Positions 4,158-61,679 of a stretch of 64,000 nt of DNA are shown here, piece after piece. The DNA comes from Candidatus Limnocylindrales bacterium (GTDB lineage Bacteria > Chloroflexota > Limnocylindria > Limnocylindrales > CSP1-4): positions 22,697 to 86,696 of the forward strand of contig DASUKL010000052.1 of NCBI GenBank assembly GCA_036278755.1. The letters run 5' to 3'. How positions within the stretch are numbered: position 1 is the first letter of the stretch; each line of letters opens with the position of its first letter. The translations under genes and the position numbers were made by a program. Under the pieces are notes generated by a model. It was not told where the DNA came from and ran no database searches. It saw only the letters and a program-made list of their open reading frames with translations.

Positions 4158-4227
4158 GCGAGCCTTCGGCCTACCTGCTAGCGAGGCTTCGGCCCACCTG
4201 CGGGCGAGGTTTCGGGCCCACCTGCGC
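4158..4227. repeat. three tandem 23-bp direct repeats in the divergent promoter region between the class IV aminotransferase and serine hydrolase genes
   Basis: gcgagccttcggcctacctgcta / gcgaggcttcggcccacctgcgg / gcgaggtttcgggcccacctgcgc. Each contains a small ggc-ttcg-gcc hairpin. Confidence 0.7.
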
Positions 4228-44255: not shown

Positions 44256-44302
44256 GGTTCGGGCTGAGCGCTGGCGGTCGGGCTCAGCGCTGGCGGTCGG
44301 GC

Positions 44303-44986
44303 TCAGCCCTTGCCGCGCGACTCCAGGATGACGACGGTCAGCTCCTGAGGCACCGAGGAGACCGAGACGGTCAGCTTGGCCTGCGGAGCAGGAGCCTGGG
44401 CCACGCCCATCTCGTGGAGGAAGCGGCCCATGGCCGCATCGCAGTCCTCGGGCCGATCGCAGACCGGCATGGCCACGACGAGGTTGACGTCGAGCTGCGA
44501 GACGACCTCCGCGGCGCGGGCCACGGTGAGGTTGCCGCCGATGGGCAGGCAGGCCACGTCGACGGTGCCCAGCTCACCCAGCGTGGCCTCGGTCAGGGCG
44601 TGGCCGATGTCACCGAGGTGGATGGCATGGAGCCCGTCGAGCTCGTAGACGAAGGCGACGTTGCGGCCGCGCTCGCTGCCTCGGGACTCGTCGCGGAAGG
44701 TGCGCACGCCCGTGACCAGGACGTCGTGGACCTCGAACTCGCCCGGACCCTCGAGGACGAAGGCCTCCTCCAGGCTCGCCGGCAGCGGGGTCCCGGCCCG
44801 GGTCAGCGCGGTGCCCTTGCGGCCCCGCGGCCCGGCCTGATCAGCATCGGCATGGCTGAAGGTGACGATATCGGCGGTCAGCCCTCGCCCGGTAGGCCCG
44901 ACGACCGAACGGAAGGCGTCGGCGGCGATGACGCCTTCGCGGCCTTTGAGGCGCAGGCAGGCCCCGCCGTACCAGGTGATCTCCAT
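44303..44986 (-). CDS. MBL-fold metallo-hydrolase (short, lactamase_B_3-like)
   Basis: MEITWYGGACLRLKG...DIVTFSHADADQAG...AIHLGDIGHAL. AGGA SD 9 nt upstream. Confidence 0.7.
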   Translation of the reverse strand: MEITWYGGACLRLKGREGVIAADAFRSVVGPTGRGLTADIVTFSHADADQAGPRGRKGTALTRAGTPLPASLEEAFVLEGPGEFEVHDVLVTGVRTFRDESRGSERGRNVAFVYELDGLHAIHLGDIGHALTEATLGELGTVDVACLPIGGNLTVARAAEVVSQLDVNLVVAMPVCDRPEDCDAAMGRFLHEMGVAQAPAPQAKLTVSVSSVPQELTVVILESRGKG

Positions 44987-48329: not shown

Positions 48330-49409
48330 ATGACGAAAGGACCCCACGTGTCTGCCCGACCTGATCCAAACCTCTTCCATCTCGGTAGGACGCGCCGGCG
48401 CTCCGGCCCCGCGGTCGTCCTGGCCACCGTGGCCATGCTAGGGGTCGCCCTCGGCGGGGGGTCGATCGCGTTCGCTGCCGGGCCCGGCAACAACGGCCTC
48501 GGAACCCCGAACGACGGCTCCACGTCAGCCGTCATGGTCGGGGGCAGCGTCACCGCCGCCGGCGGTAGCGCGACGATGAACACGAACGCCACGATGTCGT
48601 GCACCTCGAACGACTCGGTGCTTGGCTTCAGCGGCTCGTTCACCTTGGACAAGACCGTCGACTCCGGTTCCCGGTTCGTGGTCTATCTCGTTCCCAACAA
48701 CGGTTCGGACGCGAACCCCAGCACCAACGTCGCCGCCAACTCCGCCACCGTCACGGTCAGCGCGCCTGACAACTTGAGCGGCAAGACCATCTCCTTCTCG
48801 ATCCCGATCACCAGCGCATTCACCGAGTCCAGTGGTGGCATCCTGATCGTCTTCGCGGTCAACTCGGACAGCATCACGGCCATCTCGTCGAGCAAGTCGA
48901 ATTCCCTGAACTGCAGCGAGGCCGCCACGCCGACGCCCACCGTGGCGCCCACGCCGACCCCGACGGTCGCCCCGACGCCGACGCCCACCGTGGCGCCCAC
49001 GCCGACCCCGACCGTGGCCCCGACGCCCACGCCCACCGTGGCGCCCACGCCGACCCCGACCGTGGCCCCGACGCCGACCCCGACCATCGCACCCACGCCG
49101 ACCCCGACCGTGGCCCCGACGCCGACCCCGACCATCGCACCCACACCCACGCTGCCCAACACCGAGGGCTCGCCCACCCCGACGCCCTCCGGCACGGTCG
49201 TCCCGGCCACGTCCACACCGGCCCCCTCGGGGACCGTCGAGCCGGCCACCCCGACCCCGACAGCCGGCCACACCCTGCCGGCGACCGACACGACCGGCTC
49301 CGGCGGGCCGTCCGGCCCCGGCTCATGGTTCCCGCTCCTCCTGCTCGGTCTGGCCTGCCTGGCCGCTGGGATCGTGCTCCTGAGGCCGGCTCCGGCACCG
49401 CGCCGCTAA
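48330..49409 (+). CDS. secreted cell-surface repeat protein with C-terminal membrane anchor (sortase-/exosortase-like sorting signal)
   Basis: N-terminal signal ([25 protein letters not shown]). A 150-aa S/T/N-rich domain. About 9.5 tandem copies of a 27-bp repeat encoding (A)PTPTPTVAP (48921-49150). C-terminus [19 protein letters not shown], then [18 protein letters not shown], then RPAPAPRR. Confidence 0.6.
48921..49150 (+). repeat. 27-bp in-frame tandem repeat (about 9.5 copies; alternating two codon variants, effectively a 54-bp higher-order unit) within the surface protein CDS
   Basis: gccacgccgacgcccaccgtggcgccc / acgccgaccccgaccgtggccccg units repeat perfectly. Last copies have V to I substitutions. 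Confidence 0.85.
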
Positions 49410-49521: not shown

Positions 49522-50289
49522 TCAGCCCTCCTCGAGGTGCTCCAGGACGAGGCCCGGCCGGGCCATGGCCACCGGGCCGTCGAACGTGCGGCGGGCTCGG
49601 GTCGCTGCGCCCGCCACGGCCTGGTCCAGGACGTGGGTCAGGATGAGCCGGCTGGCCCCTCCGTCGCGCGCCACGGCCGCGGCCTCGGCGGCATCGAGGT
49701 GCATCGCGGCCGGTTCGTTGGGCAGGGCCCCGAAGGCGGCCTCGGAGAGCAGCGTGTCCCTGGGCCGTACGAGGGCCAGCAGGTCGGCCATCCGGCCGCA
49801 GTCACCCGAGTAGACGAGCCCCGGACCGTCGGCCGCGCCGGCCGGCGTGATCCGGAAGGCAAAGCTGGGGCCCACGTGCGTCACGACCCCGATCTCGACC
49901 TCCAGTTCGCCGATCGTCCGGCGCCCGGGCTCGAGCTCGAGGCCCGAGCCGGGCAGGCAGCTCAGGAAGTCGGGCTCGTGCATCAGCACGTCATAGCGGG
50001 CCCGCAGGCCCACCGGCGCGTGGAGGGCCAGGGAGTGGCCCGGCCCGCAGCCCCAGCGCAGGTAGTGGCGCAGGGGGACGAGATCGATGTGATGGTCGGG
50101 GTGGAGGTGGCTGATCATCATCGCCGTCAGGCTCTCGGGCGGCAGCCGCGAGCCCAGGGCGGCGAAGCTGCCCTGTCCGATGTCGAAGCAGATCCGCGTC
50201 TCGCCCTCCTCCACGAGGTAGCAGGAGGAGGAGAGGCCGGCCGAGCGCCGGGTGTAGGCCGGGCCGGCACCGACCACGGTCAGCTTCAT
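49522..50289 (-). CDS. MBL-fold metallo-hydrolase (RNase Z/ElaC-like subfamily)
   Basis: ATG at 50289 (MKLTVVGAGPAY...). MMISHLHPDHHIDLVPL (HxHxDH). C-terminal LILTHV. The upstream part of the 409-aa ORF is Arg/Pro junk. Confidence 0.65.
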   Translation of the reverse strand: MKLTVVGAGPAYTRRSAGLSSSCYLVEEGETRICFDIGQGSFAALGSRLPPESLTAMMISHLHPDHHIDLVPLRHYLRWGCGPGHSLALHAPVGLRARYDVLMHEPDFLSCLPGSGLELEPGRRTIGELEVEIGVVTHVGPSFAFRITPAGAADGPGLVYSGDCGRMADLLALVRPRDTLLSEAAFGALPNEPAAMHLDAAEAAAVARDGGASRLILTHVLDQAVAGAATRARRTFDGPVAMARPGLVLEHLEEG

Positions 50290-51143
50290 GCGCCCACGGC
50301 CCCGGGAGCCACGGGCAGCGGCCCATCCAGGGGCAGCGCACCGCGGCGCCAGGCGAGGGCCGCGAAGCCGGACCGCTCGAGCAGCCCGTACGCCTCGCTG
50401 AGGCCGAAGCCGAAGTGGTCGAGCCGATGGGCGTCGGAGCCGGCCGTCACGCGCTGGCCGCCCAGGGCCCGGAAGCGCTCCACGGCGGCCCGCGGCGGAT
50501 AGGTCTCGAGCGCCTCCTGGCGCAGCCCCGAGCTGTTGACCTCGAGGGCCGTGCCGCTCTCCACGAGGGCCGTCAGGACCCGCTCGTAGAGGTCGGCGTG
50601 GGGCTCGTAGGCGAAGGGACCCAGATAGGGCACGAGGTAGCGCTTGATGAAGTCGAGGTGGCCCAGGGTGTCGAACAGACCGCTCCGAGCGGCCGCCTCG
50701 ACCTCCTTCCAGTAGGGCTGACTGGCCTCGCGGGGCGTCTTGTCGGCGCACCAGCGGGCCGCGGCGGTCCGATCACGAAAGGGGCTGTCGGGCCCCACGT
50801 GGACCGAGCCGATGATGAAGTCGTAGGCATGGCTCGCCAGATGGGCCCGGATGTCGTCCTCGAAGCGGCGCTCGTAGGTGATCTCGACGCCGAAGCGGAT
50901 GATGGGCCGGCCGGCCCAGCGCTCAGCGGCCTCGCCGACGACCCGTCGCCGGCGCTCGTAGTCGGTGAAGGCGAAGGCCGGGGCTCGGGGGTCGAAGTCG
51001 AGGTGGTCGGTGATCATCAGCTCGGCCACCTCGCGCTCCCGAGCGGCAGCGGCGTAGAGGTCGATGGGGACGTCCGCATCCGGCGAGAGGTCGGTGTGGA
51101 GGTGGGCATCGAGGGGCAGATCCAGGCGGTCGGGCGTGGGCAT
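50286..51143 (-). CDS. PHP-domain phosphoesterase (HisJ/histidinol-phosphatase-like family)
   Basis: LDAHLHTDLSPDA, ELMITDHLDFD, FIIGSVHV, AGSDAHRLDHFG are PHP metal-binding His/Asp motifs. Stop overlaps the MBL ATG (ATGA). Confidence 0.7.
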   Translation of the reverse strand: MPTPDRLDLPLDAHLHTDLSPDADVPIDLYAAAAREREVAELMITDHLDFDPRAPAFAFTDYERRRRVVGEAAERWAGRPIIRFGVEITYERRFEDDIRAHLASHAYDFIIGSVHVGPDSPFRDRTAAARWCADKTPREASQPYWKEVEAAARSGLFDTLGHLDFIKRYLVPYLGPFAYEPHADLYERVLTALVESGTALEVNSSGLRQEALETYPPRAAVERFRALGGQRVTAGSDAHRLDHFGFGLSEAYGLLERSGFAALAWRRGALPLDGPLPVAPGAVGA

Positions 51144-51265
51144 CGCCGCGCAAGGCTAGCGCGCCCCGGTCCACCCCGCGCGGCCACCGGGCAGGCGCCG
51201 GCGTAGCCACCCCTGGTCTGTGGCGATCCCGGCACTTCTGGCCTGGGGGCCTCCCCGGCGATGCC

Positions 51266-51530
51266 CCTGCCGTCACGCCCAGCGGTACAAACGACGAATG
51301 ACCCGGCGGCCGGCGGCCTGCCGTCACGCCCAGCGGTACAAGCGACGAACGAACCTGCGGCCGACGGCCTGCCGTCACGCCCAGCGGTACAAGCGACGAA
51401 CGAACCGGCGGCCAGCGGTCAGTCGTCACGCCCAGCGGCACATCCGACCGGTCTGCCCGTCATCCGTTGCACCCAGCGAACCATCCGACCGTTGGGCTCG
51501 CAGCCGTTCGTCGCTTGTCACGCCGGCTGG
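51266..51530. repeat. three tandem 51-bp direct repeats plus a degenerate fourth copy and a downstream inverted 14-bp arm, in the XRE-TPR / PHP-MBL intergenic region
   Basis: Copies at 51266, 51317 and 51368 share cctgccgtcacgcccagcggtacaagcgacgaacgaac plus a variable 13-nt tail. A partial copy follows at 51419. The sequence cgttcgtcgcttgt at 51497 is the reverse complement of acaagcgacgaacg found in each copy. Confidence 0.8.
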
Positions 51531-51728
51531 AACAAGCCTCCGTGGGACCGGCGTAGCATCACCGGCAGGAGGTGCCTCACGCGTCAGGAGCAGCTGCTCA
51601 GTGTCCTGCTCATCGCATTCGTCATCCTGCTGGCCCTGAGCGTGGTGGTCATCGTCGTCGCCGGGGTGGTGGCGCCGGCCTCGCCGGTCGGCCCTGGCTG
51701 AGGCGCGAGCGGCAGCCGGAACACCACC

Positions 51729-53039
51729 CTACTGCGAAGCGGCCGCCCGCATCAGCTCGTAAGCGCGGCGATGGTCGCCGCTCTCCGCGGCTAGGGCGGC
51801 CCAGGCCCGCAGGACCTCTGCCCGCCGCGACGGCAGACCATGCTCGGCGGCTATGTCGGCAGCGCGCTCGAAGTCGGTCGCCGCAGCCGACACATCGCCC
51901 AGAGCCTGCGCCGCCCGCGCCCGGGTGGTGAGGGCGTCGATCGCCGCCTTGTGATTGCTGCTGGCCTCCGCGTGCGTAAGCGCCGTCGTGGCCAGCTCGC
52001 GGGCGTTCTTGGGTTGACCGCGGGCGATAGCGATCTGGGCCTGCGTGTCGAGGACGTGGGCCAGCTTGCGCACATCATCGAAGCGAGCGAGGGCGGCGGC
52101 AGCCGCGGCCGCGTGGGTCTCGGCCGCGACGAGGTTGCCCAGCACGAGATAGGTCAGGGCGAGGTTGTTGTCCATCGCCGCGGCGTCGCGCTCGGCGGCC
52201 GCCTCGGCGTAGAGCGCCACGCTCCGCTGGCCCTGTCGCAGCGCCCCCTCGAAGTCGCCAAGTTCTCGGTAGCTGGCGGAGAGGGCGGCCGCGAACGAGG
52301 CGCGGCGCAGGGCATCGAAGCCGGCAGCGGCGCGCTGCGCCTCCTGGAGGAGGGCCAGGGCACTGGCGTGATCCCCGCGCCGGGCGTCCACGTTGGCCGC
52401 CGCCACCAGCGCGCGCACGTGCAGGTCCGGATCGACGCCCGGGTCGCCTGAGCGATCATCGAGCAGGCCGCGGAGCAGGCCGCGGGCCTCATCGAGGTCA
52501 TCGCTGCCGTAGTAGGCGGCGGAGAGCCAGTAGCGTGCCAGCGCAGCATCCGCAAGGCGGCCCGCCGCAGTGAAGAGCTCGAGGGCCTCCCCAGCCGGCG
52601 CGATCGCGTCGGCGCCCCGATCCAGGCGACAGAGCGCCTCGGCCTGGGCGCGCAAGAGCTCGGCCCGGGTCAGCGCGGCGGGCTCCCGGGCGAGGAGGGC
52701 GGCGTACCCGTCGGCCGCGGCCTGCCAATCGCCCGAGGCGAGATGCAGATCGGCATCGAGCCGCAGGGCGACGACGTCATCGTCACCTACGAGTGTGGCG
52801 GGCGTCGTCCCGAGCCGGGCTGCGAGATAGGCCAGCGCCTTGATCGATGGTTGGGTCAGGCTGTTCTCGAGGGCCGAGACATACGCCTTCGAGTACTGCT
52901 CGCCCGCTAGTTCCGCCTGGGTCAGCCCGGCTGCCAGACGAGCGGCACGGATCCGTGCGCCCATGCCCTGTGCGCTCCGGGCCGGAGGCCGCCCGACGCG
53001 ACGGGCCGACGGGGCCGATCGGGCGGACGTCGTGCTCAT
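51729..53039 (-). CDS. XRE-family HTH transcriptional regulator with C-terminal TPR-like helical repeat domain
   Basis: IRAARLAAGLTQAELAGEQYSKAYVSALENSLTQPSIKALAYLAARLG (HTH_XRE). Then about 330 aa of Ala-rich helical repeats. Confidence 0.75.
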   Translation of the reverse strand: MSTTSARSAPSARRVGRPPARSAQGMGARIRAARLAAGLTQAELAGEQYSKAYVSALENSLTQPSIKALAYLAARLGTTPATLVGDDDVVALRLDADLHLASGDWQAAADGYAALLAREPAALTRAELLRAQAEALCRLDRGADAIAPAGEALELFTAAGRLADAALARYWLSAAYYGSDDLDEARGLLRGLLDDRSGDPGVDPDLHVRALVAAANVDARRGDHASALALLQEAQRAAAGFDALRRASFAAALSASYRELGDFEGALRQGQRSVALYAEAAAERDAAAMDNNLALTYLVLGNLVAAETHAAAAAAALARFDDVRKLAHVLDTQAQIAIARGQPKNARELATTALTHAEASSNHKAAIDALTTRARAAQALGDVSAAATDFERAADIAAEHGLPSRRAEVLRAWAALAAESGDHRRAYELMRAAASQ

Positions 53040-53182
53040 GCTTGGCAGTGTACTCGATTATCCAGGCGGGTGGACAGACGGCCATTCATTAGTCAGTCCC
53101 ACTGGACTATTGCGCCCAGTTAGGCGTACCATCAGAGCGCCAACCCCGGACCGGACGTGCCCTCTCGGGAGGTTCGTCCGAC

Positions 53183-53695
53183 ATGCGAGAAGGCTCGCCA
53201 ACTCAGCGGCTAGGGACGGATTTCTCCGAGCCAACAGTCTATGATGCGATCAGGGAAGGCCTGTCGAGGAATGGACTGACGGGCGATAATGCCTTGGGGA
53301 TCGACCTCACGGACTATGCTGTCGGCTCTGTCGCCCACGTCACATCGTTGGCGAAGGAGGTGCCGTCCTATGAGCTGGCTGAGCTTCGAGTTGGAGGAGA
53401 AGTCCGAGCAGTCGTTCGCGTTGATGACACCGAAAACGGATACCTCTTCGCAGCTCTCAGCCCCGCAGGCAGCGACTACCCATTCGCCTCCACCGCGACC
53501 CTGAGCCGCTACATGACGGCCAACGGACTCAGCGGCACAGGAACTCTGGTCTGGGCCTGGGCGGACGAAGGCGCATCACCCTTCACACCGTACGTGGAAT
53601 CGACTAACCCTTCATCCAGCTCGCCCACGTACCTAACCCCCCAGGGTGTCTTCGCAACTCTCCATCTAGCCCCCGGCCTCACTCCATCCCAATAG
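53183..53695 (+). CDS. hypothetical protein (first gene of lower-GC island)
   Basis: 170 aa of balanced composition (MREGSPTQRLGTDFSEPTVYDAIREGLSRNGLTGDNALGIDLTDYAVGSV...). About 57% GC, against about 72% in flanks. No family recognised. Confidence 0.4.
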   Translation: MREGSPTQRLGTDFSEPTVYDAIREGLSRNGLTGDNALGIDLTDYAVGSVAHVTSLAKEVPSYELAELRVGGEVRAVVRVDDTENGYLFAALSPAGSDYPFASTATLSRYMTANGLSGTGTLVWAWADEGASPFTPYVESTNPSSSSPTYLTPQGVFATLHLAPGLTPSQ

Positions 53696-53744
53696 GGGAC
53701 CTGCCCCGCGGCATGCAACCATGCCCCAGATCGCGGAGAGCTGC

Positions 53745-53771
53745 TGAACGTTCTTGGGCAGCTGCCCGTCT
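53745..53771 (+). promoter_or_regulatory. ECF-sigma-type promoter (TGAAC-N17-CGTCT) upstream of the ECF sigma gene (likely autoregulatory)
   Basis: tgaac at 53745-53749, a 17-nt spacer, and cgtct at 53767-53771. This fits the GGAAC-N16/17-CGTCT pattern of ECF promoters. It implies translation starts at ATG 53801 (AGGAA SD). Confidence 0.45.
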
Positions 53772-53800
53772 CTACAGATGTGGAGCTTCACCAGGAACCG

Positions 53801-54337
53801 ATGCGCCCACTCGCTAGCCTCGACGTCCACGGCGGTCCAGCCTACTCTGAGGCTGAGTTCGTGCGGCTAGTTGAGCCGGAACTGCGACACGCGTACCACT
53901 TGGCACTGATGCTGCTTCGCAATGCCGCCACGGCCGAGGATGTGGTCCAAACCGCCATCTTGCGTGCCTGGGCCGGCTGGCCCACGCTACGGGACCGGGA
54001 CCGCTTCGTTCCTTGGTTCCACAGCATCCTAATCAATGCCTGTCGCGACGAGCTCCGGCCACGCGGGCGAATACGCTGGCTCCCGCTCGATCAAGTCAGT
54101 ATCATCGCTCCGGATGGCCTAGACTCGGCTCTAGACCGCGATGTTATCGGTCGGGCATTCACAGTATTGCCGCTCCCTGAGCAGGAAGTTTTGGCTCTCC
54201 GGTTCTGGGCTGACTTGACCGTGGCGGAGATCGCATCCCGGGTCGGGGCGCCGGTAGGCACCGTCAAGTCTCGGTTGCACTCGGCATTGAGACGCATGCG
54301 GGCGGCTGTCGAGGAAGCAGGGCAGGGGACGGCATGA
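53801..54337 (+). CDS. ECF-type RNA polymerase sigma-70 factor
   Basis: Region 2 (HAYHLALMLLRNAATAEDVVQTAILRAW...FVPWFHSILINACRDELR) and region 4 (LPLPEQEVLALRFWADLTVAEIASRVGAPVGTVKSRLHSALRRMR). The ORF track starts at GTG 53780. ATG 53801 is preferred from promoter geometry. Confidence 0.8.
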   Translation: MRPLASLDVHGGPAYSEAEFVRLVEPELRHAYHLALMLLRNAATAEDVVQTAILRAWAGWPTLRDRDRFVPWFHSILINACRDELRPRGRIRWLPLDQVSIIAPDGLDSALDRDVIGRAFTVLPLPEQEVLALRFWADLTVAEIASRVGAPVGTVKSRLHSALRRMRAAVEEAGQGTA

Positions 54338-55668
54338 ATATGCTCGACGACGAGCTTGAGCGCAGGATTCGGCGCTGGTTTGAGCGCATGACTCTTCCTA
54401 CCGAGCCGGATAGCCTGCACGAGGCGCTGCAACGTCTACCACCGACGACTCGTCGCAGGCGACAGTGGATAGTCGTTCCGAGTATTGTTGCCGGCTTGCT
54501 GGCGGCGATATCACTCATCGGACTACTAATCTTCGCGAACTCCTTGCTGGGTTCAGGCCAAGGAACTGGTTCGGGGCAGCCCATTGCCTCACAGACCACG
54601 ACCACTCCCTCATCTCGTCCAACGCCACACGAAATAACACTCGCGGGTAAGCTCACCGCAAGCGAGGGATGGGCTATAGCCGACGGCGTCCTCCAGTGGA
54701 CCAATGATAACGGCACCTCATGGCACCTCACGAAAGACCTCAATGCATGGCCCCTCCTCCCAACGAGCCAGGTTGGGTTCATCGACTCCATGCATGGGTG
54801 GGGGCTCAATTTGGCAGACCCTGCACGGCCGTTGTTCGAGGTGACCAGCGATGGTGGTCAGAGTTGGGCCGCAGTCCAGCTGCCGGACATGCCAGGATCG
54901 CCATCCTCTCCTTATTTCTCCAATGTGCATTCCGGGTGGCTCGTGATAACACATGCCAGTGGAAGCGGTGAGCTGCTAGCGACTGGTGACGGCGGGGCAA
55001 GCTGGCATGTCCTAGGCTCGGTCCCATCGAGCATCCTTGGCCCCGTCGTGTTCCTCGACGAGTCTAATGCCATCGCGATCGGGACAAGCGATCCTGTTGC
55101 TGCCGCAGGACGAACGGCTGATTCGCTGTTCGTAACGCATGATCAAGGACGAACGTGGACACACGTCAACATTCCTACCCCGACCGGATTCGGCTCTACC
55201 AAATCGTCTTCTGTGGCGCAACTCCCGAGAGCGACTTCCGGAAGCAGCGCGGTCGCCGTAATAGATGTTTCAAGCAGTGCGGCGTCGATTACTGAATTGC
55301 TGAGGACCAATGACCGTGGCAGCACATGGAGCATTGCAGGGATTCTGCCAGCGGACAACAGCGGCCTGCCGTTCGCAATGGCTACACCGGGTCGATGGCT
55401 CGCTGCCTTCGCGTCCGGCGGAGCCAGCGCGCCGACGCTCATGGAATCGTTGGACGCGGGCAGGACGTGGCATCCCGTGATGGTCACAGGGTTCCCTCAG
55501 TCCCCTGTGTTCAAGAGCCTGATGTTCTCGGACGCTCAGGATGGCTGGGCCCTGGTCGATTTGGCACCTACCCCTGACGCCCAAGTGACAGTCAGCGGTC
55601 AGCTATTCGCAACGACCGATGGTGGCGCGCACTGGATTTCCATAATGTCGGGACTGCAGGTGCCTTAA
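54334..55668 (+). CDS. putative anti-sigma factor: N-terminal cytoplasmic segment, single TM, extracytoplasmic BNR/Ycf48-like repeat domain
   Basis: ATG overlaps the sigma factor TGA (ATGA). TM is IVVPSIVAGLLAAISLIGLLIF. Repeated S.DGG.SW / TxDxGxTW BNR-type motifs: TNDNGTSWH, TSDGGQSWAAV, TGDGGASWHV, THDQGRTWTHV, TNDRGSTWS, SLDAGRTWHPV, TTDGGAHWI. Confidence 0.6.
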   Translation: MNMLDDELERRIRRWFERMTLPTEPDSLHEALQRLPPTTRRRRQWIVVPSIVAGLLAAISLIGLLIFANSLLGSGQGTGSGQPIASQTTTTPSSRPTPHEITLAGKLTASEGWAIADGVLQWTNDNGTSWHLTKDLNAWPLLPTSQVGFIDSMHGWGLNLADPARPLFEVTSDGGQSWAAVQLPDMPGSPSSPYFSNVHSGWLVITHASGSGELLATGDGGASWHVLGSVPSSILGPVVFLDESNAIAIGTSDPVAAAGRTADSLFVTHDQGRTWTHVNIPTPTGFGSTKSSSVAQLPRATSGSSAVAVIDVSSSAASITELLRTNDRGSTWSIAGILPADNSGLPFAMATPGRWLAAFASGGASAPTLMESLDAGRTWHPVMVTGFPQSPVFKSLMFSDAQDGWALVDLAPTPDAQVTVSGQLFATTDGGAHWISIMSGLQVP

Positions 55669-55807
55669 TAGCGAGAGCGTCGTCGGGTTCCGAGACTCTG
55701 CCACCACAAGTAACTTGACTCGACCCCAGCCTCTTCGTTTCCGGGCTTCCCGCGTGACCGCGGCACTAGGCATACCATGGCGAGTGGCCACAAGAAGCCA
55801 TGAAGAC

Positions 55808-55837
55808 TTGACAATGGCAACTATCAGTTTGTAGAAT
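55808..55837 (+). promoter_or_regulatory. sigma70-like promoter (TTGACA-N18-TAGAAT) upstream of the DUF1906-like gene
   Basis: ttgaca at 55808-55813 and tagaat at 55832-55837 in a 326-bp lower-GC intergenic region. An approximately 155-nt leader follows. Confidence 0.45.
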
Positions 55838-55994
55838 CCGGGTCACACCCTAGCCGCCAAGCAGCGGCATCGACGGAGAACCTCCTGGGCCCGAACCCGC
55901 AGAGGGCGACCTCCCCTCTCCAGGGGCGGGTTCCAAGGGTCACACACGGGTATGGGCATGGCCGAGGCCGCGGCCCTGAGCGGGAGGCAAAGCC

Positions 55995-56876
55995 ATGTGC
56001 TCACGCAATCGTCGATTCGTCTACACGAGCCATTCGCGACGACTGCTCGTCGCCATAACGGCACTCGCCTCTCTACTGATACCAGGATTGCGGGTGTCGG
56101 CATCGATTGGCACGCAAACCTACGTCCTCGCCGAAGGATTCGATACGTGCGCCAATGTCAGTGCAGCGACACTGAGCGCGTGGTGGAATGGTACTCCATG
56201 GTATGTCTACGGGACCTATCTTGGCGGAAGCGGCGGCGCATATGTTGGCTGTGTCCCTATGAGTCAGGCGACGATCAATTCTGCAATCGGGCAAGGTTGG
56301 GCGCTCGAACCGTTTTGGTATGGGCGCCAAATGCCGTCTTCTTGCATCCGCGAGACATATCCTTCGACCATTAGCCTCAACACCACAACTGCATATAGTC
56401 AAGGAAAGAGTGAGGCCGACTCGGCGAACACCGCTGCCGCATCGTTCGGATACGGAACTTTTGACATAATCTATTACGATCTGGAGGCGACAGGAGACTC
56501 CTCCGCTTGCATAGCGGCCGCCAAGGCGTTCGTAAACGGCTGGGAGTACGAGCTTGCGTATTTCACTGCGTATTGGGGAGGATTGTATGGCTCGTCATGT
56601 TCCTCCAACCTATCGTCATTTGCTTCGATCGCTAATGTTCCTCGGGCGATCGCACCAAGAGACGTCAACCACGATCCTACCGGTGTCTATGGTCTATCGT
56701 GTCTTTCGGATAGCCTTTGGGACAATGAACAACGTATCCATCAACTTGCGGCAATGGTGCCTCTGATGTATGGCGGCCATAGCTTAGTTGTTGATGAGGA
56801 TTGTGCCTACGGTCCCGTCGACACTAATTCGGGAGTCGATCGCTCACCCTTCAACTGCAGCTATGTCCACCAGTGA
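55995..56876 (+). CDS. secreted hypothetical protein, possibly DUF1906/Rv2525c-like glycoside-hydrolase-like (TIM-barrel) fold
   Basis: Signal peptide LLVAITALASLLIPGLRVSAS. Many Cys/Trp/Tyr. Blocks LAEGFDTC, FDIIYYDLEA and VNGWEYELAYFTAYWGG are collinear with the GFD...D.D.E...GYW pattern of DUF1906. Low confidence. Confidence 0.4.
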   Translation: MCSRNRRFVYTSHSRRLLVAITALASLLIPGLRVSASIGTQTYVLAEGFDTCANVSAATLSAWWNGTPWYVYGTYLGGSGGAYVGCVPMSQATINSAIGQGWALEPFWYGRQMPSSCIRETYPSTISLNTTTAYSQGKSEADSANTAAASFGYGTFDIIYYDLEATGDSSACIAAAKAFVNGWEYELAYFTAYWGGLYGSSCSSNLSSFASIANVPRAIAPRDVNHDPTGVYGLSCLSDSLWDNEQRIHQLAAMVPLMYGGHSLVVDEDCAYGPVDTNSGVDRSPFNCSYVHQ

Positions 56877-58174
56877 TGACCGGCACCGCCCGGAGGCATG
56901 TTGGCGAGCGGGTGGAGTCAGGAGGATACGGAATGGAGAGGATTCAGTCGACGGGGCATTGCAACTTGCAGATTGCACTTGGAGTGACCGTAACGGCCTT
57001 TATTCTTGCCCTCGAGGGCTGTTCCGCCGCCAGGATTCCGACAAAAGCGACGGCCCCCGCTCTTGGCGCCACGACGGGCCATTCCAGCAATCCGTGGGTT
57101 TCGGCGACCCCTCCAGTCAGTCCCAGCCCGGCCTCCAGCACGCCCCACAGCCTCGACGGACCGGTGGGCTTCGACGGCGCGGCTGGCTGGCGCTTCTCCC
57201 CGGATGGCATGTGGACCTCGAGTGACGGCGGGCGGCACTGGAGCGCTGCGACCCTGCCGGAGGGGGTCCAGCCGACCAAGGTGGTGGCCGCGGCGATCGA
57301 CCCGCAGGGGACGATCTGGCTGGCCGTGATCCACGATCAGGGCCTGGACCTCTATCGCTCCGACCTGCTGGGCCCCTGGTCGATGGTGACCCTGACGCCT
57401 ACCTGGCCGTCGGTCGGCGGCCTGTGGAGCGGGCCACCGGAACGGGTGTCGATCTGGCCTGGACCCGCGGGGCTGGTGACGGTCGTGGCCAGCCAGACCT
57501 CGGGCATGGCCTTGGCCGTTTCGTCGACCTTCGTCTCGACCGACGGTGGACGGACGTTCCGTCAGGGATCTGCCCAGGCCGGCAGCGAGGCCAACCTCGT
57601 CTGGTCGTCCATCGCCTTCGTCGATGCCGATCACGGCGTTGTGGTCGCTGGTCCTGCCGCGAACATCCTGTTCTGGACGGCCGACGGCGGCGCCTCCTGG
57701 TCGCCGAGTTCGGGTGGCGTGAAGCGCGCCTCCGGTGACATGGTGTTCGGCCAGCCCTTCGTCGCCGGCGCAATGATCGAGCTGCCAGTCACGACCGCCG
57801 ACGCCGATGGCGGCGAATCCCTCGCGATCTACGCCAGCTCCGACGGAGGCGGCCACTTCGAGCCGCTCGCGAAGCCGGTCCGGATCGGACCGGACTACGA
57901 CCCGCCGGCCTCCGTGGCCGTGAATGGCCAGACCCTCTGGGCCCTGGGCGAAGGAGCGACGAGCCTCGAGATATCCACCGACGGAGGACGGACATGGACC
58001 TCACGAACGACCGCCGGCCTCTCAGAGAACGCGTCGATGCTGGCCCTGACGGGCGGGGAGGGCGCAGTGGCCGTGGTCAGCGATACGACATGCGCGGGGT
58101 TCAAGAGCGACTGCACGACGGACACCTACCTCGAGTTCACCGCCGACGGCGGCGCGACCTGGAGTCGGCCATGA
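56873..58174 (+). CDS. BNR/Ycf48-like repeat lipoprotein (start probably ATG 56933)
   Basis: Lipobox ILALEGCSA. BNR-like repeats SSDGGRHWSAA, STDGGRTFRQG, TADGGASWSPS, SSDGGGHFEPL, STDGGRTWTSR, TADGGATWSRP. Overlaps the upstream gene's stop. Confidence 0.55.
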   Translation: MMTGTARRHVGERVESGGYGMERIQSTGHCNLQIALGVTVTAFILALEGCSAARIPTKATAPALGATTGHSSNPWVSATPPVSPSPASSTPHSLDGPVGFDGAAGWRFSPDGMWTSSDGGRHWSAATLPEGVQPTKVVAAAIDPQGTIWLAVIHDQGLDLYRSDLLGPWSMVTLTPTWPSVGGLWSGPPERVSIWPGPAGLVTVVASQTSGMALAVSSTFVSTDGGRTFRQGSAQAGSEANLVWSSIAFVDADHGVVVAGPAANILFWTADGGASWSPSSGGVKRASGDMVFGQPFVAGAMIELPVTTADADGGESLAIYASSDGGGHFEPLAKPVRIGPDYDPPASVAVNGQTLWALGEGATSLEISTDGGRTWTSRTTAGLSENASMLALTGGEGAVAVVSDTTCAGFKSDCTTDTYLEFTADGGATWSRP

Positions 58175-59325
58175 GCACGTTCGGCCGGCCAGGACTAGCC
58201 GTCGTGGCCTGCTGCTGCCTGAGCCTTCTTGCCGGATGCAGCGGCGTCGGCAGTCCCTCAACGCCGCCGGTCACATCGGCCCCGCCTTCACCGACCACCG
58301 GGACCTCGGGATCCCCGACGCTATCGGCCAGCGCCCCGGCGTCGGCGACCGCGACAGCGTCGATGACCGTCACGCCCTCGCCAACGACGCCGCCCGACCA
58401 GATCCCCGAGGCGCTTCGGGGCTTGCCGTTCGTCGTCGGGGAGCCGGGTCAGGGCCAGGTCGTCGGGCTCGTCGGATCGAGCGTCCGGCTGTCGGTGCCC
58501 ACGACTTCGACCGTCCTCGCCGCTTCGTCGCGGTACGTCGTGACGGCCAAGCTGGGCAAGGTCCCCGCTGAGGACGTGACGGTCTACGACCTTCAGGGAG
58601 ACACTGCCTCGGCGCTGACCTACGCCATCGGTCGGCCGGTCAGCTCGGCGGCCATCGCGGGCGACGTCGTCCTGCTTGCTGGTCCGGCGCCCAGCGGCGT
58701 CGACGGTGGGGTGACGGCCCTCGACCTTCGGACCCGGACGACCATGCAGCTGGTCAAGCCCGGAGGGGCCGTGAGCCGGCAGAACGTCCGAGCGGTGCTG
58801 CTCTCGTCGAGCGGCCAGACCGCCGTCTCGGCGTCATGCACTTCCGATGGCAGCGGCTGCACGGCCGACGTCATCGACGTGAAGGCCCTGAAGGCAGTGA
58901 GGACAGTGGATCTTGCCGGCTCGCCAAGCGCCGCCACCGACGAGATAGTGCTGGTAAGACCCGACGGCAGCACCATCAGCGGCGTCGACCTCCTCACGGG
59001 CAAACCCCGCTGGAGCCACTGTTGCGAAGAGTACGACTGGTCCTACGCGATCCCTAATGGCTTCATCGTGGCCAAGGGCTCCTACCCGTTCCGCCTCCTC
59101 CTCGTTGATGCAATGTCGGGCGTGGTCACGACCAAGCTCGAACGCGCGACACAGGATCACTGGACACTCTGGCCGTCGCTCTCCACCTCCTCGGCCGCCA
59201 TATTCAGCCCGAACGGTCTGCTCGCGGAGACCGCAGCCGATTCGGGACGCATCGTAGGCGACCTGCTCGACCTAGACACAGGTCAGGTAACCGAGCACGC
59301 CCTCGATATCGGGGCGCGACCATGA
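58171..59325 (+). CDS. hypothetical lipoprotein (beta-rich, S/T/A/V-rich)
   Basis: ATG overlaps the upstream TGA (ATGA). Lipobox LLAGCSG followed by an S/P/T linker. No family recognised. Confidence 0.5.
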   Translation: MSTFGRPGLAVVACCCLSLLAGCSGVGSPSTPPVTSAPPSPTTGTSGSPTLSASAPASATATASMTVTPSPTTPPDQIPEALRGLPFVVGEPGQGQVVGLVGSSVRLSVPTTSTVLAASSRYVVTAKLGKVPAEDVTVYDLQGDTASALTYAIGRPVSSAAIAGDVVLLAGPAPSGVDGGVTALDLRTRTTMQLVKPGGAVSRQNVRAVLLSSSGQTAVSASCTSDGSGCTADVIDVKALKAVRTVDLAGSPSAATDEIVLVRPDGSTISGVDLLTGKPRWSHCCEEYDWSYAIPNGFIVAKGSYPFRLLLVDAMSGVVTTKLERATQDHWTLWPSLSTSSAAIFSPNGLLAETAADSGRIVGDLLDLDTGQVTEHALDIGARP

Positions 59326-60377
59326 GATCCGCACGCACCTTCGTGGCGCTGACCCGGTCGGCCATAGGCGCCATCGGACTCGCCATGGCCCTTAGTGTCG
59401 CCGCGCCCAGCGCGCTACTTGCTCACGTTCCAACGACGGGAGCGAGCAAAGGCAGTTTCGTGAAAGACCAAGCAGTGACCTTCAAGTACGCTTCCGCCAG
59501 CTACCCATCATGGCTTACGACGGCGGTGACCGATACCTTGCAGAACTACTACCACGATGCAAATCACAACAGCCACGCTCCATCACTGACCTACTCCAGC
59601 AATGGAACTGCAGTCGTCCACTATGTCGCCCAAACAACGTCGCCGTGTGGCACTGGCTCGCAGACATGGCTCATGTGCACGACCGGCGGAGGGTCAAGCG
59701 GGTGGGATATATATGTACGCGACCTCGACAACTCGGGATCAAGCAATAACTGGTGGGAGGAGACGCCTCACTGCTCCGCTGGGTCGACGTGCTACTACGT
59801 CCATCGTGCAATGATCCACGAATCCGGTCATGCGATGCTGAGTTTTGCGGATGAGAGTGGTTGGTCGGAAGATGACACGGTCATGAACGGCATTGATCCA
59901 CATGTAGGCGCCACTGGCGCTACTCACTGGGATTACCAGCGGTGCGACGAGGCGGCATCGCAGTTACTATGGGACCTCAAGAACAGCGCCGGGGAGTATG
60001 GCGATTGCTTCGACGATATCGTCAACCACGGAACTCATGGTCTCAAGACGGATCTAACCATGGGAACGACTAGCTACAGCGCATGTAATGGCGACTCAAT
60101 CATCGCTAGCGGTCGCATCCAGGTTCACGACTATTCAAGCTACGGTCCCCTCGGAGGAAACCCCCTCACCAATCGGACCGTATGGGTCGATCGCGGGAGC
60201 ACGCTTAAGTTCACCTCGGCCATTGCCAGCAACGCTTCGAATGATAATTGGTCGGTAACGCTCAACGGGAGTAGCGTGACCTACAGCTACTCAGCTCATT
60301 TCGACTATTCGTCTGGTTCCGGGCTCGATGCCTCTGCCCACGTTGCCTTTACAGCGCGATGGGGGACCGCCTGCTAG
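59322..60377 (+). CDS. secreted zinc metalloprotease-like protein (HExxH zincin motif)
   Basis: ATGA overlap with the upstream gene. Signal peptide AIGLAMALSVAAPSALLAHV. HRAMIHESGHAML (HExxH) with downstream acidic FADESGWSEDD. Many Cys, Trp and Asn consistent with a secreted disulfide-bonded domain. About 55% GC. Confidence 0.6.
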   Translation: MRSARTFVALTRSAIGAIGLAMALSVAAPSALLAHVPTTGASKGSFVKDQAVTFKYASASYPSWLTTAVTDTLQNYYHDANHNSHAPSLTYSSNGTAVVHYVAQTTSPCGTGSQTWLMCTTGGGSSGWDIYVRDLDNSGSSNNWWEETPHCSAGSTCYYVHRAMIHESGHAMLSFADESGWSEDDTVMNGIDPHVGATGATHWDYQRCDEAASQLLWDLKNSAGEYGDCFDDIVNHGTHGLKTDLTMGTTSYSACNGDSIIASGRIQVHDYSSYGPLGGNPLTNRTVWVDRGSTLKFTSAIASNASNDNWSVTLNGSSVTYSYSAHFDYSSGSGLDASAHVAFTARWGTAC

Positions 60378-60389
60378 TCAAGCGCCCAC

Positions 60390-61679
60390 CTAGACAAGGT
60401 GCAGTTCCCGGCCGGCCGTGGCGAAGGCGTCAAGGCAGGCCTGGAGATCGTCCCGGCTGTGCTCGGACGTGACGATGGTCCGGATGCGGGCCTTGTCCAG
60501 GGCCACCGTGGGGTAGACGATGGCCTGGGCGAAGACGCCCAGCTCGCCCAACCGGTCGGAGAGTCGGGCGGCGTTCTCCGAGGAGCCGACGATGACCGGG
60601 GTGATGGGCGTCTCGCTGATGCCCGTGTCGAAGCCCAGGTCCTCCAGGCCCGACTTGAAGAAGCGGGTGTTGTCCCACAGGCGTTCGATCCGCTCCGGCT
60701 CGCCCTCCAGGACGTCGATGGCGGCCAGGCAGGCGGCGGCCACGGCCGGCGGATGGGAGGTCGAGAAGAGGAACGGCCGCGAGCGCTGGATGAGGTAGTC
60801 CCGCAGGGCCTGGGTCCCGGCCACGTAGCCGCCCAGCACGCCGACGGCCTTCGACAGCGTGCCGACCTGGATGTCGACCCGGCCGTGGAGCCCGAAGTGG
60901 TCCACCGTGCCGCGGCCGTTGTGGCCCAGGACGCCCGAGGCGTGGGCGTCGTCGATCATGACCGCCGCCTCGTAGCGGTCGGCCACGTCGCAGATGGCGG
61001 GCAGGGGACAGATGTCGCCGTCCATGCTGAAGACGCCGTCGGTGATGACCAGGATGTGCTCGTAGGCGCCGTTGGGGCCGCCCTTGGCCCGCGCTTCGCG
61101 GAGGACCGACTCCAGGCCGTCGACGTCCTTGTGGGGGAAGACCGCCCGGGAGGCCTTGGAGAGCCGGACGCCGTCGATGATCGAGGCGTGGTTCAGCTCG
61201 TCGCTGACGATGAGGTCGCGCTCACTCGTGACCGTGGGGATGACCCCACTGTTGGCCGTGAAACCGGACTGGAAGGTGAGGACCGCCTCGGTGTGTTTGA
61301 AGGCCGCCAGGCGCCGTTCCAGCTCCTGGTGGAGCTCCATGGTGCCGGCGATGGTCCGCACCGCACCGCTGCCCACGCCCAGGTCACGGACCGCGGCCAG
61401 GGCCGCCTCCACGAGGTGGGGATGCGTGGCCAGGCCCAGGTAGTTGTTGGAGGAGAGGCTGATGAGCGGCCGCCCGTCCATGACCGCATGCGGTGTCTGG
61501 GCCCCCGACAGGACGCGCAGAGGCCGGTAGAGCGACTGGGCCTTCAGCTCCTCGATGGCCTGGCCGAGGTAGGCCAGGGGGTCCGCGCGGGTCGAAGCCT
61601 GGGCCGGGTCAGGGATCTTGGTCTGCGCCGTGTCGCGGGTCGTGGTCTGCGCCGTGTCGCGAGTCGGGGTCTGGGCCAT
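60390..61679 (-). CDS. kbl: glycine C-acetyltransferase (2-amino-3-ketobutyrate CoA ligase)
   Basis: Collinear with E. coli Kbl: SNNYLGLATHP, DELNHASIIDG, TDGVFSMDGDI, DDAHASG, GTLSKAVG (PLP Lys). The N-terminus carries a 24-nt tandem duplication encoding TRDTAQTT x2. Confidence 0.85.
   Translation of the reverse strand: MAQTPTRDTAQTTTRDTAQTKIPDPAQASTRADPLAYLGQAIEELKAQSLYRPLRVLSGAQTPHAVMDGRPLISLSSNNYLGLATHPHLVEAALAAVRDLGVGSGAVRTIAGTMELHQELERRLAAFKHTEAVLTFQSGFTANSGVIPTVTSERDLIVSDELNHASIIDGVRLSKASRAVFPHKDVDGLESVLREARAKGGPNGAYEHILVITDGVFSMDGDICPLPAICDVADRYEAAVMIDDAHASGVLGHNGRGTVDHFGLHGRVDIQVGTLSKAVGVLGGYVAGTQALRDYLIQRSRPFLFSTSHPPAVAAACLAAIDVLEGEPERIERLWDNTRFFKSGLEDLGFDTGISETPITPVIVGSSENAARLSDRLGELGVFAQAIVYPTVALDKARIRTIVTSEHSRDDLQACLDAFATAGRELHLV

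Follow-up and report, generated by a model that had tools for sequence, protein, structure and literature searches.

A possible variable number tandem repeat-like expansion upstream of a PHP-MBL gene pair in an uncultured Chloroflexota bacterium

What three near-identical 51-bp units represent is the question raised by an intergenic locus in the metagenome-assembled genome of a Candidatus Limnocylindrales bacterium, from an uncultured soil and freshwater lineage of the Chloroflexota. The stretch of this genome that was analysed, referred to here as the window, is 64 kb long and has a G+C content of 72%; the PHP protein that it encodes is 100% identical to one from a Candidatus Limnocylindrales genome of this kind. 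The units fall in a 585-bp gap between a gene for an XRE-TPR regulator and a pair of genes for a PHP-domain phosphatase and an MBL-fold hydrolase, all three on the minus strand. An initial sequence-only reading had proposed an iteron-like array of operators, a structured RNA leader or the remnant of a mobile element; it had not foreseen that the threefold array might be a recent expansion of a single unit. The account that we prefer, to which we give an even chance of being correct, is that the array is a variable number tandem repeat (VNTR)-like unit expansion within a block of cis-regulatory DNA repeats, lying between two putative back-to-back promoters.

Structure of the array and its variation between relatives

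Tandem Repeats Finder (TRF) delimits the array at 51266-51442 (period 51, 3.5 copies, 90% matches, score 284), which is the second-highest score in the window and the highest among non-coding arrays. Three near-identical units had been described at 51266, 51317 and 51368, and both TRF and a repeat search bear this out, the full units being identical to one another at 46-48 of 51 positions. A 32-nt core is matched three times at up to 3 mismatches, as against no matches in 100 shuffled sequences. The units abut and have no unique spacers between them, in keeping with the earlier view that this is not a CRISPR array. The decay seen downstream of the third unit is also real, but where one decayed copy had been reported there are three (51419, 51459 and about 51510), giving six copies in total rather than four. 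The elements of the gap are listed here in order, with L004 denoting a relative described below.

51144-51183, minus strand: PHP-proximal conserved region, holding a TAGCCT box (AGGCTA on the plus strand, 51153-51158)
51198-51207, no strand assigned: 10-bp direct repeat CCGGCGTAGC on the PHP side, flanking the repeat-bearing block
51208-51265, no strand assigned: spacer between the putative PHP promoter region and unit 1, poorly conserved and indel-rich
51266-51316, plus strand: unit 1, 51 bp, more diverged than the other two, with the ACAAACGACGAATG variant and 46-47 of 51 positions identical to units 2 and 3
51317-51367, plus strand: unit 2, 51 bp, found by TRF, the repeat search and core matching
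51368-51418, plus strand: unit 3, 51 bp, which aligns to the sole unit of L004 (44/50 in the alignment, 45/51 ungapped)
51419-51458, plus strand: decayed copy 4, 40 nt, old, with a 5' half (GTCGTCACGCCCAGCG) conserved in L004 and a variable 3' half
51459-51509, plus strand: decayed copy 5, old, identical to L004 at 45 of 51 positions
51505-51518, minus strand: inverted 14-mer CGTTCGTCGCTTGT, an exact reverse-complement match to ACAAGCGACGAACG of units 2 and 3
51510-51560, plus strand: decayed copy 6, old, overlapping the inverted arm and the -10-like TAGCAT box (51554-51559) of the small open reading frame (ORF)
51548-51557, no strand assigned: 10-bp direct repeat CCGGCGTAGC on the small-ORF side, flanking the repeat-bearing block
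51579-51701, plus strand: small membrane-peptide ORF of 40 codons (TRQEQLLSVLLIAFVILLALSVVVIVVAGVVAPASPVGPG), with a signal in the G+C content of third codon positions (GC3), called as a 40-aa gene in L004

The array lies 122 nt from the start of PHP and 160 nt from that of the small ORF. A shared core, GTCACGCCCAGCG or a sequence like it, recurs at start-to-start spacings of 51, 51, 51 and 41 bp, which are roughly whole numbers of helical turns. The inverted 14-mer had been taken to be the reverse complement of the core in every unit; this is so for units 2 and 3, whereas unit 1 has two mismatches to it (ACAAACGACGAATG). The arm is contained in a 40-nt imperfect inverted repeat, 73% complementary, that sets 51381-51420 against 51487-51526. 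With a single unit the repeat block is about 190 bp long; in the window it reaches about 290 bp. The stretch between the two copies of CCGGCGTAGC is about 340 bp (51208-51547). Its spacer portion (51208-51265) is about 59% identical in a MAFFT alignment, with 17 gap columns when gaps are allowed.

Relatives were taken to be contigs encoding PHP homologues, and these differ considerably in what they carry upstream of that gene (PHP identities are for amino acids):

L004 (PHP 87% identical): an aminotransferase gene end, then the small ORF (starting with ATG), decayed copies 6 to 4, the inverted arm and a single full 51-bp unit
L010 (PHP 81% identical): the small ORF, about 95 nt from PHP, with the repeat block absent and a single CCGGCGTAGC
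L009 (PHP 87% identical): the PHP-side spacer, then a different array of 14 bp x 7.4, with a unit resembling the start of copy 6
L005-L007 (PHP 76-80% identical): an aminotransferase gene about 50 nt upstream of PHP
L008 (PHP 72% identical): an unrelated gap of 415 nt upstream of PHP
L017 (PHP 74% identical): a low-GC stretch upstream of PHP without a called gene, and a putative opposite-strand ORF seen by eye

Between conserved flanks, the number of full units is therefore three in the window, one in L004 and none in L010. To judge from these loci, the threefold array arose recently, in this lineage, from one ancestral unit. In another read set, two Logan contigs (L012 and L003) have flanks 100% identical to the window and both end inside units; they differ from the window at 51291 in unit 1, where L003 has a G in place of A. 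This indicates that the array there has at least two units and allelic variation. The array in L009, at 12-114 of its contig, consists of CGCCACGACAAGCA x 7.4, and the contig begins inside it; its 14-bp unit and the inverted arm of the window have GACAAGCG in common. Since the site upstream of PHP differs among relatives, it appears to be a rearrangement hot spot. The locus is also mosaic: the small ORF of the window is closer to that of L010 (90% identical) than to that of L004 (74%), whereas the figures for PHP are 81% and 86%, respectively, which suggests a recombination breakpoint near the start of the small ORF.

The outer flanks of the two CCGGCGTAGC copies in the window match the flanks of L010, which are joined there by one copy. 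This arrangement raises the possibility that the block at 51208-51547 is the remnant of a non-autonomous element like the miniature inverted-repeat transposable elements (MITEs), with CCGGCGTAGC as a 10-bp target-site duplication. The repeat is exact on both sides, L010 resembles an empty site, and the locus is an insertion hot spot, with 9.2 kb, including a low-GC island, lying between PHP and the aminotransferase gene in the window. Like MITEs such as the Correia elements of Neisseria, this is a short non-coding block in a promoter region with short direct repeat flanks and an empty-looking site in a relative. Unlike them, it has an internal tandem structure and no terminal inverted repeats (the 40-nt ends align at a score of 5, against a shuffle mean of 6.4); furthermore, no transposase is found nearby, and the arrangement in L010 could equally have come from a deletion across two 10-bp microhomologies there. 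Dispersed copies, which would have marked the unit as mobile, were found neither in the window nor in public collections. A blastn search with the unit and with the whole gap gave nothing outside the locus in the 64-kb window. A degenerate 20-base core had two lone matches among 185,579 representative genomes, both in unrelated sequence and judged to be chance, whilst two scans of JGI metagenomes gave zero matches to the unit, three scans of viral contigs gave one chance coding match, and blastn against plasmids and phages gave no match. With the 10-bp flanking repeat as its remaining support, and neither terminal inverted repeats nor a second copy in the collections searched, the suggestion of a mobile remnant is one to which we give very little credence.

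Conservation of the block and the putative promoters beside it

Between the window and L004, the sequence from 51368 to 51578 is identical at 178 of 210 positions (85%) with zero indels. This exceeds both local benchmarks, namely the third codon positions of PHP (201/286 identical, about 70%; binomial p = 8e-7) and the indel-rich spacer at 51184-51263 (42/71 identical; Fisher p = 2e-5). The 32 differences are spread 10/14/8 over the three phases, and therefore no frame is likely to be coding on either strand. In the window and in L004 alike, frame 0 stays open through the repeats and on into the small ORF, and the repeated translation RHAQRYKRRTN that had been noted across the units does exist; it is, however, just one of three open frames. 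A coding reading of the repeats was rejected, as GC3 is flat and the substitutions lack codon periodicity despite the open frame. The 85% identity, the lack of indels and the lack of codon periodicity together imply that the block is probably non-coding DNA under constraint.

These figures bear on a simpler alternative, in which neither the array nor the block is functional; they would be a neutral minisatellite in a recombination-prone hot spot, and the higher identity to L004 would result from a recent recombination tract or a low local mutation rate, not from selection. The variability of the region upstream of PHP in almost every relative (L005-L010, L017), the mosaic history of the locus and the absence of the block from L010 would all be expected of such a site, as would the frequency of tandem repeats in this genome and the further tandem duplication that L004 has where the small ORF ends (32 bp x 1.9). 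However, a single recent tract is insufficient as an explanation, because the spacer beside PHP, part of the same inserted block, is indel-rich and only about 59% identical, whilst the repeat block retains 85% identity over 210 nt without an indel. In addition, copies 4-6, which are old paralogues, resemble one another at only about 50-60% when their alignment is inspected, whereas each of them is 88% conserved from the window to L004. Neutrality consequently strikes us as rather improbable.

On either side of the block is a short conserved box. In the window, TAGCCT lies 9 nt before the ATG of PHP, which has no Shine-Dalgarno sequence; the box is invariant in eight loci (positions in the window, L004-L010 and L017) spanning 72-100% PHP identity, at 7-9 nt from the ATG. 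Because of this spacing and the lack of a Shine-Dalgarno sequence, PHP would appear to have a leaderless transcript with a proximal promoter, and TAGCCT is probably the -10-like core promoter element of a leaderless PHP-MBL transcript. On the other side, TAGCAT at 51554-51559, followed by GGAGG, precedes the small ORF and is conserved in the window, L004 and L010; it may be the -10-like element for that ORF. The two boxes flank the repeat block, and are only 42 bp apart in L010. A promoter of the extracytoplasmic function (ECF) type, GGAAC-N18-CGTAG at 51529-51556, was also considered and rejected, its spacer being 1-2 nt above the usual length and its -35 absent in L010.

The VNTR-like account would join these observations as follows. 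The outermost (distal) unit of an older block of six direct-repeat copies would have been amplified in tandem, by slipped-strand mispairing or unequal recombination, the block itself having entered or grown at CCGGCGTAGC, which is now found on both sides. The block would act as DNA, with its phased core motifs as sites for a putative DNA-binding factor, and these sites could serve as an upstream control region for the promoter of the small ORF and perhaps for that of PHP too. With extra units, there would be a different number of sites and about 100 bp more between the two promoters. The promoter positions, the protein binding and the effect on expression are what we infer here from sequence. 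The account gains from the position of the promoter boxes, which are conserved and lie outside the repeat block, and from the frequency of tandem repeats that TRF detects in this genome.

Several results weigh against it. The block is dispensable, because L010 lacks the whole of it. No enrichment of the unit motif was seen in the rest of the window, and no binding protein emerged for it. Both promoter boxes were read from the sequence, and a scan of 50900-52000 with sigma-70 promoter and terminator consensus sequences returned zero sites. The estimate of constraint comes from a single pair of genomes, the window and L004, and its neutral benchmark is uncertain because the locus is mosaic. Finally, copies 5 and 6 are conserved over their whole length, beyond the shared motif, which would fit an RNA or a complex nucleoprotein region no less than simple operators.

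This last point leads to an alternative in which the conserved block is transcribed and works as RNA, either as a long structured 5' leader of the small-ORF mRNA on the plus strand or as a small RNA or antisense regulator of it. This would parallel type I toxin-antitoxin loci, where a structured or antisense RNA keeps a small hydrophobic peptide under control, and the added units would lengthen one arm of the structure. Besides the conservation of whole copies and the neighbouring ORF for a 40-aa hydrophobic peptide, there is a perfect 14-bp stem between 51389-51402 and 51505-51518, inside the 40-nt imperfect inverted repeat. The stem carries two substitutions in L004, each of which makes a G-U pair on the plus strand but A-C on the minus, and a local hairpin at 51414-51452 has one double change from A-U to G-C. 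The fold z-score is -2.6 for the plus strand of the window, and in L004 it is -1.26 for the plus strand as against -0.18 for the minus. These scores are modest, however, and that of the minus strand of the window is equal at -2.53; moreover, a substitution of GACCG to GACCA disrupts a plus-strand pair. RNAalifold, run on two sequences, produced compatible structures on both strands, with no power to discriminate between strands or detect covariation. Rfam 15 has no match in the window at gathering thresholds, and at E <= 10 only two chance snoRNA matches (E = 5-9) at 51100-51760; a search for tRNA and transfer-messenger RNA (tmRNA) found none, and the scan of 50900-52000 gave no terminator. 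Should TAGCAT at 51554-51559 be the promoter, the transcript would start downstream of the block; L010 also retains the small ORF despite lacking the block. We consider a role as RNA unlikely, though it is the chief rival to the role as DNA that we favour, ahead of a neutral repeat.

The small ORF and the neighbouring genes

The gap had been described as non-coding throughout, which is not so at its far end. The ORF at 51579-51701 has a strong GC3 signal (51560-51700, in the plus-strand frame ending at 51701) and a coding substitution pattern: identity to L004 is 85/80/56% at codon positions 1/2/3, and the comparison with L010 gives 8 synonymous and 4 non-synonymous codon differences. By these patterns the ORF is under purifying selection. 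Its predicted product is a hydrophobic peptide with one hydrophobic stretch, forming a single helix; a profile search matched only the protein of L004 itself, and no Pfam or NCBIfam family. At the start position, the window and L010 have ACG (51579-51581 in the window, 6 nt after the GGAGG at 51568-51572) where L004 has ATG (256-258); either translation initiates at ACG or the start may be one that is not recognised. In L004, the tandem duplication of 32 bp (x1.9) is perfect and lies at 88-149, over the stop-codon end of the ORF; it represents a tandem duplication independent of the 51-bp array, the second at this locus.

The genes on either side are as the sequence-only reading had assigned them, including the coupling of PHP and MBL, with Pfam matches to each:

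49522-50289, minus strand: MBL-fold hydrolase gene, with a 4-nt overlap with PHP
50286-51143, minus strand: PHP-domain gene for a HisJ-family phosphatase, the first gene of the PHP-MBL pair
51729-53039, minus strand: XRE-TPR regulator gene, convergent with the small ORF

The hydrolase is similar to cyclic-nucleotide phosphodiesterases, with a match under the curated cut-off. Other genes in the window confirmed by Pfam encode an ECF sigma factor, BNR proteins and an arginyl-tRNA synthetase (ArgRS).

The adjacent regulator had been put forward as the partner of the array, the units being its operators for control of the PHP-MBL operon. XRE-family proteins do bind repeated operators, and the XRE-TPR gene is physically adjacent in the window. 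However, the repeats sit in the 3' flank of that gene, and what follows the block and the small ORF in L004, going away from PHP, is the end of an aminotransferase gene rather than XRE-TPR. The family is widespread in Limnocylindria, with orthologues in other contexts that lack such repeats, and the region upstream of XRE-TPR itself (53040-53182) has the palindrome TAGTC-N10-GACTA and no unit motif. The adjacency is specific to this window; with the linkage absent from L004, orthologue loci devoid of repeats and another palindrome upstream of the gene itself, the proposed partnership finds no support, and we give it almost no credence. The palindrome, at 53085-53105 in the AT-richer divergent region 5' of XRE-TPR, is a candidate operator for autoregulation and has no relation to the 51-bp unit.

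The aminotransferase gene, which abuts PHP in relatives, is found in the window at 60390-61679, 9.2 kb from PHP, with XRE-TPR and a low-GC island in between. This island (53000-60400) has a G+C content of 52-64%, against 72%, with a stretch of 70% at 57000-58800, and includes genes for an ECF sigma factor, two BNR-repeat proteins and an Rv2525c-like glycoside hydrolase as well as three ORFs without a family; no integrase or transposase was seen in it.

Intergenic minisatellites seem to be common in this genome. Two others lie at 4158-4226 (23 bp x 3.0, 86%), between divergent ORFs, and at 44259-44307 (19 bp x 2.6, 96%), between convergent ORFs. There is also a 24/48-bp periodic repeat at 48920-49144 (9.4 copies of 24 bp), within an ORF at 48683-49291 that is assigned to the minus strand by GC3; this ORF has no Pfam family and would encode a repetitive protein rich in Gly and Val.

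Comparison with known repeats and significance

The array consists of head-to-tail units in the 10-100 bp range and of high identity, with a copy number that varies between conserved flanks, as in minisatellites and VNTRs. By analogy, it would be of an ordinary kind, a promoter-region minisatellite or VNTR like that of Mycobacterium tuberculosis fpg1. In that species, the length of the array VNTR3239/ETR-F, upstream of fpg1 (Rv2924c), correlates with expression, and the mycobacterial interspersed repetitive units (MIRUs) are a dispersed family of 41 loci (PMC2734929). The array resembles these VNTR and MIRU repeats in having units of tens of bp (40-100 bp in MIRUs) that lie head-to-tail between genes in a high-GC genome, and it resembles the VNTR in that copy number varies between close relatives whilst the flanking genes are conserved. 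It has no sequence similarity to the MIRU, and no second locus was found for the 51-bp unit in the 64-kb window or public collections; it also sits on an older, degenerate repeat block that is apparently constrained. MIRUs are typically located within operons, and small ORFs encoded by their units overlap the flanking stop and start codons; in contrast, the array here is between divergently oriented genes.

Iterons, which belong to plasmid and phage replication origins, share with the array several direct repeats in the same orientation, spacing close to the helical phase and an inverted copy nearby. They are, however, about 17-22 bp long and bound by a Rep protein encoded alongside, with AT-rich DNA and DnaA boxes, whereas the unit here is 51 bp and GC-rich, in a chromosomal context between housekeeping-type genes. 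The proposal of an iteron-like operator array is thus upheld in part: a cis-acting role as DNA fits the constraint and the promoter-flanked position, but there is no rep gene within 10 kb of the array and the unit far exceeds the length of an iteron. Judged by the features that define those classes, the array does not belong with MIRUs, iteron arrays, MITEs or CRISPR arrays.

Type I toxin-antitoxin loci of Escherichia coli such as Ldr/Rdl, Ibs/Sib and Zor/Orz are a further point of reference, having a hydrophobic peptide gene of about 35-40 codons, a conserved non-coding 5' side and local duplication. The peptide here, at 40 codons, is likewise hydrophobic and shorter than 60 aa. There, duplication takes in the complete gene pair, hundreds of bp in length; the duplicated segment here is 51 bp, and the peptide has no family match. 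A bolder proposal would combine the block and the membrane peptide into a type I toxin-antitoxin-like or riboregulatory module, new in Chloroflexota, in which a possibly toxic peptide would be translated from the ACG start and a repetitive structured leader or antisense RNA would have its length tuned by unit expansion. We give this joint proposal little credence.

No major open question is altered by these results. To our knowledge, no regulatory elements have been described for this uncultured soil and freshwater lineage of the Chloroflexota. Two side observations may be of wider use in annotating Limnocylindria genomes: the invariant TAGCCT box 7-9 nt before the start, which points to leaderless transcription, and the conserved small ORF with ACG in the position of a relative's ATG. 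If the VNTR-like account is right, the array would be one more bacterial promoter-region minisatellite, here in an uncultured member of the Chloroflexota, and the loci with 0, 1 and 3 units would form a natural series for asking whether unit number tunes two divergent promoters.

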